Positions 4,278 to 39,035 of a DNA stretch of 64,000 bases are shown here, piece after piece. Within the stretch, counting starts at the first letter, position 1. Each line of letters opens with the position of its first letter. The stretch is from NCBI GenBank assembly GCA_017451295.1, contig JAFSPW010000033.1, positions 12,990-76,989 of the forward strand, in the 5' to 3' direction. The notes beneath the pieces were generated by a model that was not told the origin of the DNA, did not search any database, and worked only from the letters and a program-made list of their open reading frames with translations. Position numbers and translations under genes: made by a program. The DNA comes from Clostridia bacterium (lineage in GTDB: Bacteria; Bacillota; Clostridia; Christensenellales; CAG-138).

Positions 4278-4571
4278 TCATTTCTCTATTCTATCCAGTA
4301 TGTCCCCATAGCCTCCCGCACCGTAGGCGAGGCTTTTATTCACCCGTGAAATGGTGGCGGTGGAGGCACCGGTCATCTTTGCCACCTCCGTATAGGTGAT
4401 GCCTTGCCGCAAGAGCTTTGCAACCGTGAACCGTTGGGACATGGCCTTTAGCTCCTGTATGGTGCATAGGTCTTCAAAAAAGCTATAGCACTCTTCCAGA
4501 TTAGATAAGGCAAGGATACCCTGGAACAGGAAGTCTGTTTCTGTTTGATTCATCTTGCTGTTGTTCGTCAT
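4278..4571 (-). CDS. TrpR-like YerC/YecD family protein
   Basis: 97 aa. The sequence ...LCTIQELKAMSQRFTVAKLL..GITYTEVAKMTGASTATISRVNKSL.YG.GGY is the YerC/YecD (Trp-repressor-like HTH) pattern. Confidence 0.8.
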   Translation of the reverse strand: MTNNSKMNQTETDFLFQGILALSNLEECYSFFEDLCTIQELKAMSQRFTVAKLLRQGITYTEVAKMTGASTATISRVNKSLAYGAGGYGDILDRIEK

Positions 4572-4586
4572 TATTCTCTCTCCATT

Positions 4587-5342
4587 TCATTTTGTTATGC
4601 CGGAAAGAAACTCTTTAAGGGCAGGGGAGGAGGGGTTGTCCAAAATGGATGCGGGACCTTCTTCCTCCACCACGCCGTTGAGTATAAACACGATTCTGTC
4701 CGCCACGGATCGGGCAAAGTTGATTTCGTGGGTCACAACAGCCATGGTCATGCCTTCCTCCGCTAAGGTTCGAATCACCTGGAGTACGCTCCCGGTCAGT
4801 AAGGGGTCCAGGGCGGAGGTAGGCTCATCAAAGAACAAAACCTTGGGGTCCATAGCCAGCGCCCGCGCGATGGACAAACGCTGCTGCTCGCCTCCGGAGA
4901 GCTGATACGGATAGGCATCTGCCCGGTGGGATAGATCCATTTTCTTGAGCAGTGCCCGGGCTCGTTCCTCGGCTTCCTTTGCCGTGCGCTTTTTTACATG
5001 AATCTGCGCATCGGTTACATTCTTCAGGGCGCTGAAGTGGGGGAACAGGTTGAAGCTCTGAAACACAAAGCCCATGTTGCTGCGAACTTGTTTCAGCTCC
5101 TTTGGGCCGGCATACACACATTGACCATTTTCCATCCAGGCCACCTTTTTGTCAAGGCAAATCATGCTGCCCTCGTCCATTCTTTCCAGCAGCCCTGCAC
5201 AGCGAATCAGCGTACTTTTTCCAGAGCCGGAGGGGCCGAGAATAGCCACAGTCTCCCCTTCCCGGATGGAAAGGGACACGCCTTTTAGGATAGGCCGTCC
5301 CTCAAAATTCTTTTTCAGGTTGTTGATTGTAAGAACGTTCAT
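4587..5342 (-). CDS. polar amino acid ABC transporter, ATP-binding protein
   Basis: Walker A GPSGSGKST, signature LSGGEQQR, Walker B LFFDEPTSALD. GlnQ/HisP-like. Confidence 0.9.
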   Translation of the reverse strand: MNVLTINNLKKNFEGRPILKGVSLSIREGETVAILGPSGSGKSTLIRCAGLLERMDEGSMICLDKKVAWMENGQCVYAGPKELKQVRSNMGFVFQSFNLFPHFSALKNVTDAQIHVKKRTAKEAEERARALLKKMDLSHRADAYPYQLSGGEQQRLSIARALAMDPKVLFFDEPTSALDPLLTGSVLQVIRTLAEEGMTMAVVTHEINFARSVADRIVFILNGVVEEEGPASILDNPSSPALKEFLSGITK

Positions 5343-33939: not shown

Positions 33940-36252
33940 CTATTTTCCCTGCACCGTCAGCTTATCGTTTCGACAGCCAACAGAGATATGGCTGATTTGG
34001 CCTTGACTGCTCATAAGCAAGTCCACAATTTTATCCTCCACTTCAGTTTCAATATAGCGCCTGAGGTTTCTTGCTCCAAAGGCCTGGGAGTAGGAGGAGA
34101 GGGCCAAATGCCTGGCAGCGGCATCGGACCAGGTGAGCGAAAGCCCCTTGTTGGCCATGGAGGCTTTCAGCTCCTTAAGCAGAATGTGGGCAATGCCGGT
34201 CATGCTCTCTTGGCTAAGATGAGAGAAGCAGATGATGTCGTCCAAACGGTTCAAGAACTCGGGACGAAGGAAGGATTTCAGGGCGTTCATAGCCTTTTCC
34301 TTGGTGCTTTCCATGCTGCTTCTGCTAAAGCCCACGGTACCGGAACCCTTCTCCTCGGATCCGGCGTTGCTGGTCATGATGAGGACGGTGTTGGCAAAAT
34401 TCACCTTGCGCCCATGGGCATCGGTGATATGGCCGTCGTCCAGAATCTGCAACAGGATGTTCATCACATCCGGATGGGCCTTCTCTATCTCATCAAAGAG
34501 AATGACACAGTAGGGACGGCGGCGCACGGTCTCCGTCAGCTGTCCGGCCTCATCATAGCCCACATACCCCGGAGGGGAGCCAATGATGCGGGAGACGGCG
34601 TGCTTTTCCATGAACTCGCTCATATCGAGGCGAACCAGCGCTTCCGGCCCGTCAAAGAGTTCCCGGGAAAGCTGCTTCACGAGCTCCGTCTTGCCTACGC
34701 CGGTGGGGCCGATGAACAGGAAGGAGATGGGCCGACGGGAATCGGAGATACCGGCCCGACGGCGCTTGATGGCGGCACATACCGCATCTACCGCCTGGTC
34801 CTGGCCCACGATACGGCCTTTGAGCCTGTCGGACAGGGCAGCTAAGCGCGTAAACTCCTGCTCCCGAATCTTCCCGGCGGGAATCTTTGTCCAAAGCTCG
34901 ATGATGCCCGCCAGAGAATCCACCGTCATGGTGGGCAAGCCCTGCTCCGTGAGCTCCTGTAGTCTGCCATCCAGCACATCTGTGCTCTCCTTGATAGCGG
35001 CCAGCCGTTCCTCCGTCTCGGGAGAAACCTCGCCCATCAGCAGGGAGGAGGCCTCTGCCTTCAGAGCGTTCATCTCTTGATGAATGCTTTCCATCTCCCG
35101 GCAGATAGGACTCTTCAAATTCAAATCCGCCGCCGCTTCATCGAGCAGGTCGATGGCTTTATCCGGGAGGAACCTGTCCGTGATATAGCGCTCGGACAAC
35201 AGCACCGCCTGCCGGGCCATGGCCTTGGGAATGACCACGGAGTGGTATGCTTCATAATAGTGTGCCACGCCCGAGACGATGGCGATGGAGTCCTCAATGG
35301 AGGGTTCCTCCACGGTGACCGGCTGGAACCGACGCTCCAAGGCCGTGTCCTTTTCAATATGCTTGCGATACTCCGTAAAGGTAGTGGCGCCGATAACCTG
35401 AATGTCCCCACGGGAAAGGGCGGGCTTTAGGATGTTGGCAGCGTTCATGCCGCCTTCCGCATCTCCGGCGCCGACGATGGAGTGGACCTCGTCTATGAAC
35501 AGAATGATGTTGCCAAGACTCTTAATCTCGTCTAACAGGCCCTTCATCCGGCCTTCCATCTGGCCGCGGTACTGGGTCCCGGCCACGAGGGAAGTCATAT
35601 CCAGCTGCCAAATCTCTTTATCCAGGAGCTTATAAGGGGCTTTCTTTTGGACAATCCGCTGCGCCAAGCCCTCTACAATGGCGGTTTTCCCCACGCCGGG
35701 TTCGCCAATCAGGCAAGGATTGTTTTTTAGCCTCCGGTTCAAAATCTGCATGGTGCGCTGCAGCTCCGTTTCACGGCCGATAAGGCCGTCCATCTTGCCA
35801 GAGGCGGCCTTGGCGGTTAAGTCGATGCAGAAAGCGTTCAGATACTTCTTTTCCGGTTCCTGCCGCTCGGCCGAGCGCCGCTGCTGACGGGTTTGACCGG
35901 CAGAAGCCTGTCCGTTCCCCTTCTGTTCACGGTTATCTCTGCGCGCGGCACCGGGAAACAGATTCCCGTACAGCCGCCGAAGAATGCTGTCTGTGCCGGT
36001 TTCGCCAATGTTGTTGGTGTCATCATCCACATTCATCAGCTCTCCGCCCAGAACCTCGTTGGCTTGCTCGCAGATAGCGTCCAGGTCCTCCTCACGAAGA
36101 CCCAGATTATTGAGCACATCGTCAATGGGCTTTAAGCCCAGCTCCTTGGCACATTTTAAGCAATAGCCTTCACTCTTCATCTCCCCGTTTTCCATCCGGG
36201 AGACAAAGAGCACGGCTTGATTTTTTTTGCACTTTGCACAAAGCGCCGCCAT
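33940..36252 (-). CDS. clpE: ATP-dependent Clp protease ATP-binding subunit, ClpE type
   Basis: 770 aa with two AAA+ modules (GEPGVGKTA; GPTGVGKTE). It has a short coiled-coil linker and a VGF ClpP-docking tripeptide. In place of a Clp_N domain it has an N-terminal CX2CX22CX2C zinc ribbon (C5,C8,C31,C34), the ClpE hallmark. Confidence 0.85.
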   Translation of the reverse strand: MAALCAKCKKNQAVLFVSRMENGEMKSEGYCLKCAKELGLKPIDDVLNNLGLREEDLDAICEQANEVLGGELMNVDDDTNNIGETGTDSILRRLYGNLFPGAARRDNREQKGNGQASAGQTRQQRRSAERQEPEKKYLNAFCIDLTAKAASGKMDGLIGRETELQRTMQILNRRLKNNPCLIGEPGVGKTAIVEGLAQRIVQKKAPYKLLDKEIWQLDMTSLVAGTQYRGQMEGRMKGLLDEIKSLGNIILFIDEVHSIVGAGDAEGGMNAANILKPALSRGDIQVIGATTFTEYRKHIEKDTALERRFQPVTVEEPSIEDSIAIVSGVAHYYEAYHSVVIPKAMARQAVLLSERYITDRFLPDKAIDLLDEAAADLNLKSPICREMESIHQEMNALKAEASSLLMGEVSPETEERLAAIKESTDVLDGRLQELTEQGLPTMTVDSLAGIIELWTKIPAGKIREQEFTRLAALSDRLKGRIVGQDQAVDAVCAAIKRRRAGISDSRRPISFLFIGPTGVGKTELVKQLSRELFDGPEALVRLDMSEFMEKHAVSRIIGSPPGYVGYDEAGQLTETVRRRPYCVILFDEIEKAHPDVMNILLQILDDGHITDAHGRKVNFANTVLIMTSNAGSEEKGSGTVGFSRSSMESTKEKAMNALKSFLRPEFLNRLDDIICFSHLSQESMTGIAHILLKELKASMANKGLSLTWSDAAARHLALSSYSQAFGARNLRRYIETEVEDKIVDLLMSSQGQISHISVGCRNDKLTVQGK

Positions 36253-36292: not shown

Positions 36293-36631
36293 TTACTCTG
36301 ATTCCTCTGCCAATAGACCGGCAATCAGCGACAGCAGCATATCGTTGATGGAAGAAAGCCGCATCAGCACCTCCGGCATGGCCTCAGGGCGCACCTCCAC
36401 GCGGCACACCGTCATATCGTTGGCAGGGCGCAGATACCCCACGGAATAGGTATCCGTCACCAGCCCGTTGACATGCAGCAGGGCATGCATCATCTCGTCA
36501 ATCTGGGCCATGCGAACACGAGTCTGCTCGCTTATGCCACGACGCATCATCAGCAGACGAGAGGTGTTCATGTTCTGCGAGACGGTAAGCCAGGCCATTT
36601 GCAAGGCCTTATCCATATTCATTCTATCCAT
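36293..36631 (-). CDS. hypothetical 112-aa protein, first gene of the clpE transcription unit
   Basis: Start re-set to ATG 36631 (SD gggaggg 6 nt upstream). It ends 40 nt before clpE with no intervening terminator. I recognise no family. Confidence 0.55.
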   Translation of the reverse strand: MDRMNMDKALQMAWLTVSQNMNTSRLLMMRRGISEQTRVRMAQIDEMMHALLHVNGLVTDTYSVGYLRPANDMTVCRVEVRPEAMPEVLMRLSSINDMLLSLIAGLLAEESE

Positions 36632-36765
36632 ATGAAACCCTCCCTTCCGTATGCTGACATACAGCCATACATCTCTGCTGATAGCATACGCTTTCCATTG
36701 TAAAAATGTCAATCCATTTGTCGATGAATTCGATTTCCTGTTGCACGAAATTCACAATGTAAAAA

Positions 36766-36796
36766 GGAGGCTGCCAGGAACGTCCTGCCAGCCTGG
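36766..36796 (-). terminator. rho-independent terminator (minus strand)
   Basis: Read on the minus strand: ggctggcagga-cgt-tcctggcagcc (10/11 bp) followed by TCCTTTTT. Confidence 0.7.
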
Positions 36797-36843
36797 ATGG
36801 ATGACAAAATAGTGGACTTTCCTCGCAGCCCTGCCTTGGATTG

Positions 36844-36962
36844 CTTCTGTCTGTGATGTATGACAGTCATGACGGTCATTTCCAAAACTTTTTTTAGATA
36901 GATATTTTAAAAACGCCCTATACTAGTTTTTAGTATTGACTGTCATGACTGTCATAGATGGG
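36844..36962. repeat. 119-bp hairpin/palindromic element, copy A
   Basis: 20-nt arms tATGACAGTCATGACGGTCA (36859-36878) and TGACTGTCATGACTGTCATa (36937-36956) are fully complementary, with one G-T pair. The 57-nt AT-rich core contains aaaaacgccctatactagtttt. It is homologous to copy B at the same length. Confidence 0.85.
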
Positions 36963-37006
36963 GGCAGGGGAAGCCGTTTTTCGGCTGCCTTCTAAACGGC
37001 TAAAAC

Positions 37007-37033
37007 AAAAGGGGCTATCTGGCCCCTTTGTTT
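37007..37033. terminator. bidirectional terminator-like hairpin between the two repeat copies
   Basis: aaaaggggc-tatct-ggcccctttg, with an A-run and a T-run flanking. Confidence 0.6.
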
Positions 37034-37034
37034 C

Positions 37035-37153
37035 CTTCTGTCTGTGATGTGTGACGGCCGTGACGGGCATTTCCTAAAACTATTTTAGATTAAGAATTAA
37101 AAAACGCCCTATACTAGTTTTATGTATTGGCCGTCACGCCCGTCACACATGGG
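37035..37153. repeat. 119-bp hairpin/palindromic element, copy B
   Basis: Arms tGTGACGGCCGTGACGGGCA (37050-37069) and TGGCCGTCACGCCCGTCACa (37128-37147) pair at 18/20 positions. It shares the 15-nt left flank and the core 22-mer with copy A. Confidence 0.85.
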
Positions 37154-37202
37154 TGTAGGTAAGCTCGCTTCTCGGTCGAAGACCGTAGTTTCAGCCAGTA
37201 GC

Positions 37203-39035
37203 TTATCCGTTGTTTTCCGGTTCGTTTTCAGGAGCTTTTTCCGTCGGTGCCTGCGTGGGGGTCTTGGTGGCAGAAGGGGTGTTTTGCTCCGGCTCGGCGA
37301 CAGGGGTGCTCTCCGGCTTGGGAGTGACGGCAGGCGTGCTCTCTGGCTTCGGCGTGACGGCAGGCGTGTTCTCCGGTGCAGGCGTGGATTCCTCCACAAC
37401 CAAGGTTCCCTCCGTCACTTCGTTGGGGAACATCCTGTAGGTGGAAACGCCCAGGTCGATGGAGTTCACCAACTTGCCGTTCTTATAAAACTCCTTATAG
37501 GTTCGATAGGTATAGCCGGTGCTGCCCTTTTTATCCACCTTCCGGTAGGTAACAGGCTTGGTATCATCATATGTAATCTTGTCCTCGATAGCGGTGGTAC
37601 CCGTTCTCTTGGTGCGAATGCGGATTTCATCATACTCCTCTGTGTCCATGGGCAAACCATAGATCTGCATGGTCAAGGTGTTGCCGCTGGTGAAGGCGAT
37701 GATGATGATGTCCCCGTCCGTATCGTTCTCGAACTTAAAGTCAATCTCATTGCCGACGGAGTTGATGGTTGCATCCCGGCCCTTGTCTACATAGTGCACG
37801 GGCATGCTGTGGTTGCGCCGTTCCACAATCTTCAAATCCGCCATAAGCACCGCATTATAGAGGGTGGAGGACAGCTGGCACACGCCGCCGCCGGCCTGCT
37901 GGACCACTTCGCCGCCCTCATAGGCACCGGCGCTCTTCCAGCCGTTGGCCTTCGTCCGCTTGCCCAGGGTCTGGTTGGCGGAAAAGACCTCACCGGGTTT
38001 TAGGACGGTCCCGTTGATCTTCTCTGCGCCGAAGCGAATGTTGTACTTTCGATTGCTGGTGCTGCCGGAGAAGCTGGTGCTAAAGCCAGGTCCCCGCATG
38101 GTGTACTGCCCTTGCAGCATCTGCTTGGTGATGGGGGCAGTCAGCTCCGTCATAGGAATGTCGATAACCGTTCCGGAGGTGGGGTCGGTAGCAAGGATCG
38201 TGTTCACCAGGGCCGTTTGGTCCACGCCCCGGCCGTTGACTTCGTCCACATAAACAATGGCGTTGTTCTCCATGCTAAGCGTAGCATTCTTCGCAGGCGT
38301 ATCAATGGCGTTTGCGAGGAACGCCACAAAGCCGGTGACGGAATCCTTGTCATACTGGGGCCGAGCGGCCACATCATAGCCTGCGGCAATCTGTTGCACC
38401 TGCGCCATAAACGAATCATAGTCGAGGGTTCTATCGCGCATAAGGCCGAAAGCGGTATCAATGGCCTCATCTACATCAAACACCAGACGAATGCCGATAT
38501 CGTTGGAAGCAGCGGCACCAGTTTCCGCTTCCTCCTCCTCGGCAGCAGCCTCCTCGGCCGCCATCATTTCCGGATCCACCTCGTCCTCGTCCTCTTCTTC
38601 GATTACGGAGGCGGTGTTGTTCTTGGCAGCTTCTTCAATTCCTTCTGCGGTGCAGGGATACACCTTGGTGCCGTCCCTAAACTGCAGATTCGCTTGCTGG
38701 GCCGCCGAAAGGGCAGCAGTAGACAAAGCGGCTTTTGCCTCGTCTTTGGTCATGCCGCCAACATTCACGCCCAAAATGGCCGTGCCGGGCAGCATGGTGG
38801 TACGCAGGGTGATGGCATCTATCTCGGCCTGATGCTGTTGCTGCAGCTCGTCCACCTGGGGTAAGGAGACCTCCAAATCCTTCGGCGCAATGGTTGCCTG
38901 TTGAACCGCAGGCGTGATGGCAGGGGTATTCCCGCTCAATAAAATGGCGCACAGACCGCCGGCCAAAACGAGAACGCCGGCGCTTGCGCCCAGTATCCAA
39001 GTCAAATTCTTTTTGCCCATAAGAGCCCTCCTCAT
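37203..39035 (-). CDS. VanW-family cell-wall-associated protein with G5-like domain and Pro/Thr-rich tail
   Basis: 610 aa with an N-terminal TM anchor. VanW core (...GGGVCQLSSTLYNAVL...ERRNHS), a G5-like segment (TYDDTKPVTYRKVDKKG...), and the C-terminal repeat PESTPAVTPK x2-3 encoded by a 30-bp tandem repeat at 37308-37387. Confidence 0.85.
   Translation of the reverse strand: MRRALMGKKNLTWILGASAGVLVLAGGLCAILLSGNTPAITPAVQQATIAPKDLEVSLPQVDELQQQHQAEIDAITLRTTMLPGTAILGVNVGGMTKDEAKAALSTAALSAAQQANLQFRDGTKVYPCTAEGIEEAAKNNTASVIEEEDEDEVDPEMMAAEEAAAEEEEAETGAAASNDIGIRLVFDVDEAIDTAFGLMRDRTLDYDSFMAQVQQIAAGYDVAARPQYDKDSVTGFVAFLANAIDTPAKNATLSMENNAIVYVDEVNGRGVDQTALVNTILATDPTSGTVIDIPMTELTAPITKQMLQGQYTMRGPGFSTSFSGSTSNRKYNIRFGAEKINGTVLKPGEVFSANQTLGKRTKANGWKSAGAYEGGEVVQQAGGGVCQLSSTLYNAVLMADLKIVERRNHSMPVHYVDKGRDATINSVGNEIDFKFENDTDGDIIIIAFTSGNTLTMQIYGLPMDTEEYDEIRIRTKRTGTTAIEDKITYDDTKPVTYRKVDKKGSTGYTYRTYKEFYKNGKLVNSIDLGVSTYRMFPNEVTEGTLVVEESTPAPENTPAVTPKPESTPAVTPKPESTPVAEPEQNTPSATKTPTQAPTEKAPENEPENNG

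Follow-up and report, generated by a model that had tools for sequence, protein, structure and literature searches.

Two tandem orphan units in a clostridial vanW locus resemble a post-primase module of temperate Firmicutes phages and are probably captured phage origin modules

Results and discussion

The whole stretch of DNA analysed here (64 kb, hereafter the window) carries on its minus strand the gene order recX, vanW, a conserved gene for a protein of 112 aa, and a gene for a Clp-type ATPase. Behind the vanW stop codon and ahead of the ancestral vanW terminator lies an insertion of about 400 bp, which holds two similar units, here termed A and B. The following features were assigned (coordinates refer to the window):

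33940 to 36252, minus strand: gene for a Clp-type AAA+ ATPase (context)
36293 to 36633, minus strand: conserved small gene, 112 aa, without a Pfam family and with its own promoter at 36712-36683 (context)
36760 to 36796, minus strand: ancestral vanW terminator, a hairpin (36768-36794) plus T-run, -19.4 kcal/mol, followed by the conserved motif 'cattgtgaa'
36797 to 37202, minus strand: unit-bearing insertion, about 400 bp, with units A and B
36814 to 36831, minus strand: weak terminator-like hairpin after unit A, positional counterpart of the hairpin at 37008-37029
36844 to 36962, minus strand (the best-scoring one): unit A, orphan module of phage type and putative origin, recognised by phage-only profiles
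36860 to 36877, plus strand: iterons 1 and 2 of unit A, ATGACAGTC and ATGACGGTC
36878 to 36937, no strand assigned: AT-rich core of unit A, putative DNA-unwinding region, aligning with the family consensus ...CCCTTTAGGGC-A/T spacer-...AGTTTAGGAAAT
36909 to 36930, no strand assigned: invariant 22-mer in unit A, equivalent to the first inner box of the family (minus strand ..CTAGTATAGGGCG..)
36938 to 36955, minus strand: iterons 3 and 4 of unit A, ATGACAGTC twice, inverted
37008 to 37029, no strand assigned: bidirectional intrinsic terminator between the units, -17.0 / -16.5 kcal/mol with T-runs on both strands, inside the 191-bp repeat
37035 to 37153, minus strand: unit B, orphan module and putative origin with the other iteron variant, recognised by phage-only profiles
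37051 to 37068, plus strand: iterons 1 and 2 of unit B, GTGACGGCC and GTGACGGGC
37069 to 37128, no strand assigned: AT-rich core of unit B, containing the invariant 22-mer (37100-37121)
37129 to 37146, minus strand: iterons 3 and 4 of unit B, GTGACGGCC and GTGACGGGC, inverted
37203 to 39035, minus strand: vanW-family gene (Pfam VanW 8e-51, PG_binding_4, G5), context outside the element

Seven orthologous recX-vanW-small gene-clp loci (L005, L006, L040-L044) kept the synteny and lacked the block of about 400 bp. Their spacer between vanW and the small gene consisted of the terminator, the sequence 'tgtgaaaaac' and the promoter only, the terminator and the motif behind it being arranged as in the window. 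Likewise, the module profile introduced below did not match any of the seven loci. The long vanW-clp spacer of L044 was considered as a counterpart of the element and rejected, its sequence being unrelated. Since the block is missing from all seven orthologous loci, it is a species-specific insertion within an otherwise housekeeping locus. Two metagenome contigs of the same species (L003 and L004, 99.8% identical) carried both units, and the orientation of the units was the same in all three samples of the species. An exact look-up of the VanW protein of the window gave no match, so that related loci were located via its homologues; two named VanW matches of about 58% identity mark the host as Clostridia-like. 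Unit B is located in the 3' untranslated region of vanW, with the vanW stop codon on one side and a terminator on the other.

The initial annotation had described two direct-repeat copies of 119 bp offset by 191 bp, and the sequence matches that description, with 72 bp between the copies. Each unit of roughly 120 bp comprises two 9-bp repeats, an AT-rich core of about 57-60 bp and two inverted 9-bp repeats. The similarity between A and B is longer than 119 bp; it spans 151 nt (36834-36984 vs 37025-37175, 77% identity) and thereby continues for some 25-35 nt outside the inverted repeats. The left flank cttctgtctgtgatgt, already noted as identical in the two copies, is shared over 16 nt, and the invariant 22-mer AAAAACGCCCTATACTAGTTTT occurs exactly twice in the 64 kb (at 36909 and 37100; 0 expected by chance). 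Over its inner 40 nt the core has 25% GC, compared with 53% for the window. The arms are built from the 9-nt block RTGACNGNC, as had been proposed; within the window its double-unit pattern is confined to this locus (0.08 expected), and 11 of all 29 single matches fall inside one 400-bp bin. Of the minus-strand terminators that had been assigned to the two copies, those at 37008-37029 and at approximately 36768-36794 proved real, with the refinement that a weaker hairpin (36814-36831) lies nearer to unit A. A terminator-like hairpin thus follows each unit about 25 nt downstream on the minus strand, so that the 191-bp repeat combines a module with a terminator; it arose by local duplication or was taken up from a single source.

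The arms of unit A pair with one G-T and those of unit B with two mismatches (C.C and G.G), in line with the earlier description, and the predicted folds gave z-scores of -5.7 to -8.5 on either strand relative to shuffled controls. The exchanges between A and B had been interpreted as drift that preserves pairing. This interpretation did not hold: unit A has ATGACRGTC and unit B GTGACGGSC at all four places, and the mismatches in the B hairpin coincide exactly with the position that separates its two word variants. As the four words of a unit change together, the seemingly compensatory exchanges between the two units do not count as evidence for base pairing, and the 'covarying arms' would thus be protein-read iterons that change in concert.

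Searches with the element itself retrieved little. The exact core (18-20-mer) gave only two chance matches within coding sequence, in a spirochaete and a Thorarchaeote, among about 185,000 species-representative genomes, and nothing in scans of IMG/VR and of the JGI metagenomes. The 400-bp block had no blastn match in phage or plasmid collections, and neither the arm pattern nor the left-flank pattern was found in IMG/VR. A pattern for the arm architecture (two words, a gap of 45-75 nt, two inverted words) was more productive: in metagenome contigs it identified 23 loci, with an estimated chance expectation far below one. In nine of them the element begins -3 to +56 nt from the stop codon of a primase-helicase gene with D5_N, DUF5906 (SF3 helicase) and Pox_D5 domains. 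Since the arm-pattern search was blind to neighbouring genes, this association is no selection artefact. Seven of these loci are of Firmicutes type (L009, L012, L014, L018, L020, L026, L029) and continue with VRR-NUC and SNF2 helicase genes, a set that is a phage replication module; the other two, L007 and L015, are distant and GC-rich. Some cores resembled that of the window as well, L014 sharing GTCatttccaaaac and L018 having aaaaacgccctatagagagtttt. One further locus, L019, was considered as a second chromosomal orphan and rejected, as it sits in another mobile-element context.

A tblastn search with the L014 protein revealed homologues in 693 phage records. We selected ten named phages that were reached through the protein alone, without use of the module for retrieval: Ca. 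Heliusvirales phages (Oscillospiraceae, Lachnospiraceae, Ruminococcus, Anaerosphaera and C. innocuum phages) and the Streptococcus phages phi1207.3, phi-SsUD.1, Javan638, Javan244 and Javan269. All ten had the module in the spacer 3' of the primase-helicase gene. The iteron word differs from phage to phage (GTGGAGGTC, GTGCAGGTC, GTGTAGGTC, GTGGAAGTC, GTGACACTC and others) and matches within each module, while the inner boxes are common to the ten phages (CCCTTTAGGGC, an A/T spacer, CTATAnAG, then ..GTTTAGGAAAT). A larger IMG/VR set comprised 80 contigs, again found via the protein, 79 of which had usable downstream sequence. The profile matched in 63 of these 79 contigs, starting at a median of 12 nt from the stop codon (range -9 to +147), and there was no second match elsewhere in the 63 loci of about 8 kb. 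Most of the contigs missed by the profile still had an inverted repeat with an AT-rich centre, many with (G)GTGNNGGTC-type arms. Relative to the gene, the asymmetric core was canonically oriented in 51 cases and inverted in 12. We use the term family here for the post-primase module of phages of the Heliusvirales/Streptococcus-prophage type, as defined in this analysis.

Profiles built exclusively from phage modules led back to the window. The three best window matches of the ten-phage profile were two in unit A (E = 3.4e-7 and 3.4e-4) and one in unit B (E = 2.8e-3). A profile of 69 phage modules, run over the 64 kb, matched the minus strand of unit A (E = 6.1e-13) and of unit B (E = 2.3e-11); the next match had E = 0.25. 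As a phage-only profile finds A and B and nothing else of significance, we regard the homology of the two units to the phage post-primase module, judged from these profiles, as well supported. The reading as a protein-bound operator or iteron module, one of those listed in the initial annotation, thereby gained support from homologous phage modules beside primase-helicase genes. The plus strand of the window had been considered as the canonical orientation and was rejected on the basis of the 69-module profile; a weak profile match at 32.46-32.51 kb turned out to be ordinary coding sequence. Ranked among the 63 phage modules by the unbiased ten-phage profile, unit A comes at the 11th percentile and unit B scores lower than every one of them; the second inner box is degenerate in both units. 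A and B are each other's closest relatives: the whole units score 58 against each other vs at most 42 against any phage module, and their cores 39 vs at most 25. Both iteron variants are in use among phages, RTGACRGTC in many and GTGACGGMC/GTGACGCCC in L049, and iteron type stands in a partial relationship only to the identity of the helicase C-terminus. Short likenesses of the flanks to primase 3' ends and to the RBS region of the next gene were also seen; they are suggestive and too short to count.

A tblastn search of the 64-kb window for homologues of the primase-helicase, VRR-NUC and SNF2 proteins found none, and the genes flanking the units are housekeeping genes. Since the window has no primase-helicase gene, both units are orphan modules.

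The phage primase-helicase matched PDB entry 7OLA, the fused primase-Rep self-loading helicase PriRep5 of SaPI5, across the ATPase and C-terminal domains (E = 5e-11); the C-terminal profile alone gave E = 0.17 against the 7OLA CTD. An SF3 helicase with a C-terminal DNA-binding domain homologous to PriRep is present in the phage proteins, and none is encoded in the window. SaPI origins have an AT-rich centre and iterons immediately downstream of the rep ORF, with at least two iterons per side in opposite orientation that are read by the C-terminal winged helix of Rep (PMC9371898). The window units share this layout with two plus two iterons around the AT-rich centre, and their phage homologues lie immediately 3' of the pri-rep ORF of an initiator homologous to PriRep5. 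In SaPIs as in the phages, the iteron sequence varies between elements and would thereby confer specificity. In contrast, SaPI iterons measure 5-6 bp, vs 9-10 bp and only two plus two per module here; no SaPI counterpart has been described for the inner boxes CCCTTTAGGGC ... CTATAnAG; and the window units follow vanW, with no rep gene within 64 kb.

A second parallel is the pRN1 origin, a 100-bp stem-loop (21-nt stem, 58-nt loop) located 3' of a primase/SF3/winged-helix gene, which is necessary for replication and works when relocated; its authors pointed to a comparable stem-loop behind the replication gene of phage BIP-1 (PMC4234260). The window units likewise form an inverted repeat of about 100 bp, with 20-nt arms and a 57-60-nt core, and the pRN1 stem, too, varies in sequence among relatives while keeping its symmetry, which this type of origin requires (PMC4234260). 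On the other hand, the pRN1 authors saw no iterons in the stem, whereas each arm here is one word given twice; the pRN1 protein has a prim-pol primase domain, and the window copies are orphans rather than neighbours of a replication gene. Phage P4 encodes the SF3 primase-helicase alpha, which binds origin repeats via its C-terminal winged helix (PMC2777425, PMC4234260). Different from the present case are its DnaG-type primase and the retention of the initiator gene in cis. The P4 crr region contains two direct repeats of about 120 bp, some 60 bp apart, with octamer iterons in both orientations near the alpha gene, and would thus resemble the two 119-bp units of the window with their spacing of 72 bp; the P4 iteron word TGTTCACC is different from the window words. 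Finally, origins of Streptococcus phages have been predicted downstream of the replication module (PMC13575424). Judged by architecture, position and initiator homology, the phage module is most likely a phage replication origin, although it could instead serve the primase-helicase operon as a terminator or for autoregulation. The module family is best read as iteron origins of SF3 primase-helicase initiators, a kind already known.

We consider it probable that units A and B are origin modules captured from phages, which would act in trans only and lack a dedicated role in the host. Each unit would be a copy of the cis-acting module 3' of the fused primase-helicase gene in a large family of temperate Firmicutes phages. 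There, the C-terminal winged-helix domain of the PriRep-type initiator, a protein with D5_N, an SF3 helicase domain and this C-terminal DNA-binding domain, may read the 9-10-bp iterons; one hexamer would be loaded on each side of the module, and the AT-rich centre would be melted and then primed. Because no initiator gene accompanies the window units, they could function in trans only, that is, they would be bound only when an incoming phage supplies a matching initiator. One module with its terminator would have been captured from phage DNA and duplicated as the 191-bp repeat, with an effect on the host presumably limited to the added terminator and the 3'-UTR hairpin. Several observations support a relic: the element occurs at one site in one species, the profile scores are low, and the second inner box is degenerate. 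Moreover, two of the three L003-specific SNPs hit the most conserved box of unit B, in its core (37106 and 37112), and this location suggests relaxed constraint. Against a purely neutral relic counts that A and B are sister units and yet all four iterons have switched together. Neutral drift does not predict such a concerted four-word switch, which may result from selection for a second specificity or from conversion by a second phage. It is unusual to see orphan modules in tandem, with two specificities, within a housekeeping locus.

The concerted switch is also among the arguments for another function, namely that the host keeps the orphan modules as phage-responsive DNA. They would then act as decoys, titrating the primase-helicase of an infecting phage or causing it to misfire, or, in a variant of the idea, as sites where phage initiators trigger local over-replication. 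Such decoys would correspond, on the chromosome, to the engineered strategy of origin-derived phage-encoded resistance (PER), in which a phage origin in a host without the phage leads to resistance to phages using that origin (PMC8965321, PMC3530524). A PER phenotype has been obtained from cloned phage origins in lactococci (PMC8965321), and the approach is counted among engineered strategies (PMC3530524). Both units retain the complete four-iteron architecture with family-typical spacing, and with both variants in use among real phages their two specificities would cover two phage types. However, PER constructs are engineered, plasmid-borne and multicopy. PER depends on copy number, and the locus is single-copy. 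The confinement to one species and one site, the unit scores that are low relative to phage modules and the signs of relaxed constraint in unit B argue against this explanation as well, and the literature searched contained no natural chromosomal orphan origin used for defence. We therefore judge a protein-free immunity by origin decoys, acquired by copying a piece of phage much like a CRISPR spacer, to be unlikely, and retain captured origin modules as the preferred reading.

That the units act as RNA, as mRNA-stabilising or mRNA-terminating long hairpins in the vanW 3' UTR (unit B) or in a read-through transcript (unit A), or as small plus-strand RNAs from a TAGATA-N18-TATACT promoter, is very improbable. 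The very stable predicted fold and the position of unit B between the vanW stop codon and the terminator would fit such a role. The promoter proposed in the initial annotation was recovered as a 9/12 consensus match in unit A only; its TATACT -10-like box is not conserved in the phage homologues and is altered in L003. Furthermore, the units belong to no Rfam family: a search in evalue mode gave only generic miRNA-precursor hairpins far below threshold. Across 19 modules the non-Watson-Crick arm positions comprised 12 G.T, 7 A.C and 22 others, without a G.U bias. Streptococcus phages pair only the outer 10-12 nt of the arms, and in these phages as well as in L014, L031 and L037 extra, unpaired words lie beyond the hairpin. 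Each arm repeats one word, a feature not needed for pairing; the asymmetric core takes either orientation relative to the phage gene, and the orthologous operons function without the element. The suggestion of paralogous structured RNAs is thus not sustained.

A MITE-like palindromic mobile element, also suggested at the outset and here taken to have inserted twice, is very improbable. In its favour are a resemblance to terminal inverted repeats, the restriction of the insertion to one lineage and the variable core orientation among phages. However, the 64 kb contain no more than two copies, which stand in tandem; apart from the two chance matches, the core was not found in the genome, metagenome or viral collections; no target-site duplication is visible; the similarity between the units runs past the inverted repeats; and across more than 80 phage loci the homologues always sit at the same syntenic position. 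Equally improbable is that the arms are host transcription-factor operators (CtsR-like, or for the 112-aa protein) of the clp operon or form an invertible promoter switch. The units do adjoin the Clp ATPase operon, with repeats symmetric about a promoter-like core that is inverted in some phages. A search for the CtsR consensus, the tandem heptad RGTCAAA-NAN-RGTCAAA, with up to three mismatches found no box near 36-37.5 kb (8 matches in the window vs 5.2 expected), which agrees with the previous statement that this is not a CtsR operator. In addition, the same operon with its own promoter lacks the element in seven related lineages, and a strong terminator stands between the units and the clp-operon promoter. 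A switch is further disfavoured by the lack of an adjacent recombinase gene and by the constant orientation in the three samples of the species.

Conclusions

The observation that started this analysis is real and now largely explained: an unexplained 'covarying hairpin' has become a defined object, which we read as an iteron origin module of PriRep-type phages. We delineated the module in more than 80 phage genomes, covering Ca. Heliusvirales gut phages as well as the Streptococcus Javan, phi1207.3 and phi-SsUD.1 prophages; to our knowledge, the genomes carry no annotation of these putative origins. The profile could be used for origin annotation and for predicting initiator-iteron specificity groups. 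The case also calls for caution in covariation-based RNA discovery, as protein-binding words in inverted arrays look like compensatory base changes. The orphan chromosomal copies provide a concrete test case for natural phage-origin decoys, an idea that so far comes only from engineered dairy strains. If the decoy reading were true, the two units would constitute a natural protein-free immunity against the self-loading primase-helicases of two phage types.

Small gene between vanW and the Clp ATPase gene

The interval separating vanW from the Clp ATPase gene, which also holds the tandem units A and B, contains a small gene with no Pfam family:

36293-36633, minus strand, 112-aa gene

This gene occupies the same position in those orthologous loci that reach far enough (L005, L006, L041, L042 and L044), all of which lack units A and B, and is also found in the same-species metagenome contigs L003 and L004. 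The product measures 107-112 aa; partial ORFs were detected in two further orthologous loci, L040 and L043. The 112-aa gene has its own promoter (TTGACA-N18-TATGCT). A search of the window revealed no CtsR box. The product of the gene might regulate the Clp ATPase or serve as its adaptor.

Variation in unit B and the vanW tail

Comparison of the window with both same-species contigs revealed three positions unique to L003 versus the window and L004. Two of the three, at 37106 and 37112, fall within the unit B copy of the otherwise invariant 22-mer, which reads ..acGccctaTac.. in the window and L004 and ..acCccctaAac.. in L003. One G present in both L003 and L004 is missing from the window at 37302, in the vanW 3′ region, and the VanW C-terminus is therefore in another reading frame. 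The protein comprises 610 aa with its end at 37203 in the window, versus 597 aa in P0001. Either a genuine frameshift polymorphism or an error in sequencing the repetitive Pro/Thr-rich tail of VanW could account for the missing G. The same coding tail carries a 30-nt tandem repeat in which GTGACGGCA occurs twice (37324-37332 and 37354-37362), about 170-210 nt from unit B and differing by one base from the unit B iteron GTGACGGCC. This iteron-like word may be a coincidence in a codon repeat.

Orientation and tandem copies of the module in phages

In a minority of phages (L009/L012, L020/L026 and 12 of the 63 IMG/VR loci), the asymmetric module core was inverted relative to the primase-helicase gene, which suggests that the core is occasionally flipped via recombination between the inverted iteron arms. 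Tandem modules are likewise found natively in phages, as concluded from the following sites:

L014, ~4447-4495
L031, ~4837-4928
L032, L035, L036, L038 and L039, Streptococcus phage spacers

One contig was suspect: in L018 (2 kb, low coverage), the C-terminal 265 aa of a primase-helicase and its module are fused to an internal gyrA fragment, and this contig is probably a chimeric assembly.

Iterons outside the primase-helicase context

A member of the module family without an adjoining primase-helicase was detected in the metagenome locus L019 (1640-1880 and 1984-2078; E=5e-10). Its neighbours are four direct repeats of ~60 nt, an RHH-like small gene, a DndB-like gene and a cluster of four tRNA genes, and L019 seems to represent a different type of mobile element with the same iterons. 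On a 2.7-kb metagenome contig (L022, 921-1024), we observed arms identical to those of unit A (ATGACAGTCATGACGGTC ... GACTGTCATGACTGTCAT) around a different core; an HTH_3 (XRE-type) gene is located downstream of this element, which gives a weak profile hit (E=2e-3).

The same 9-mer also occurred in longer arrays on GC-rich metagenome contigs. GTGACTGTC is repeated about seven times adjoining deaD in L010 (~523-600), while arrays of ATGACGGTC in both orientations occupy the 3′ end of a 722-aa ORF in L011, L025 and L027, and ATGACCGAC follows a 410-aa ORF in L013 and L016, neither ORF having a Pfam match. These arrays may represent origins of other initiator families.
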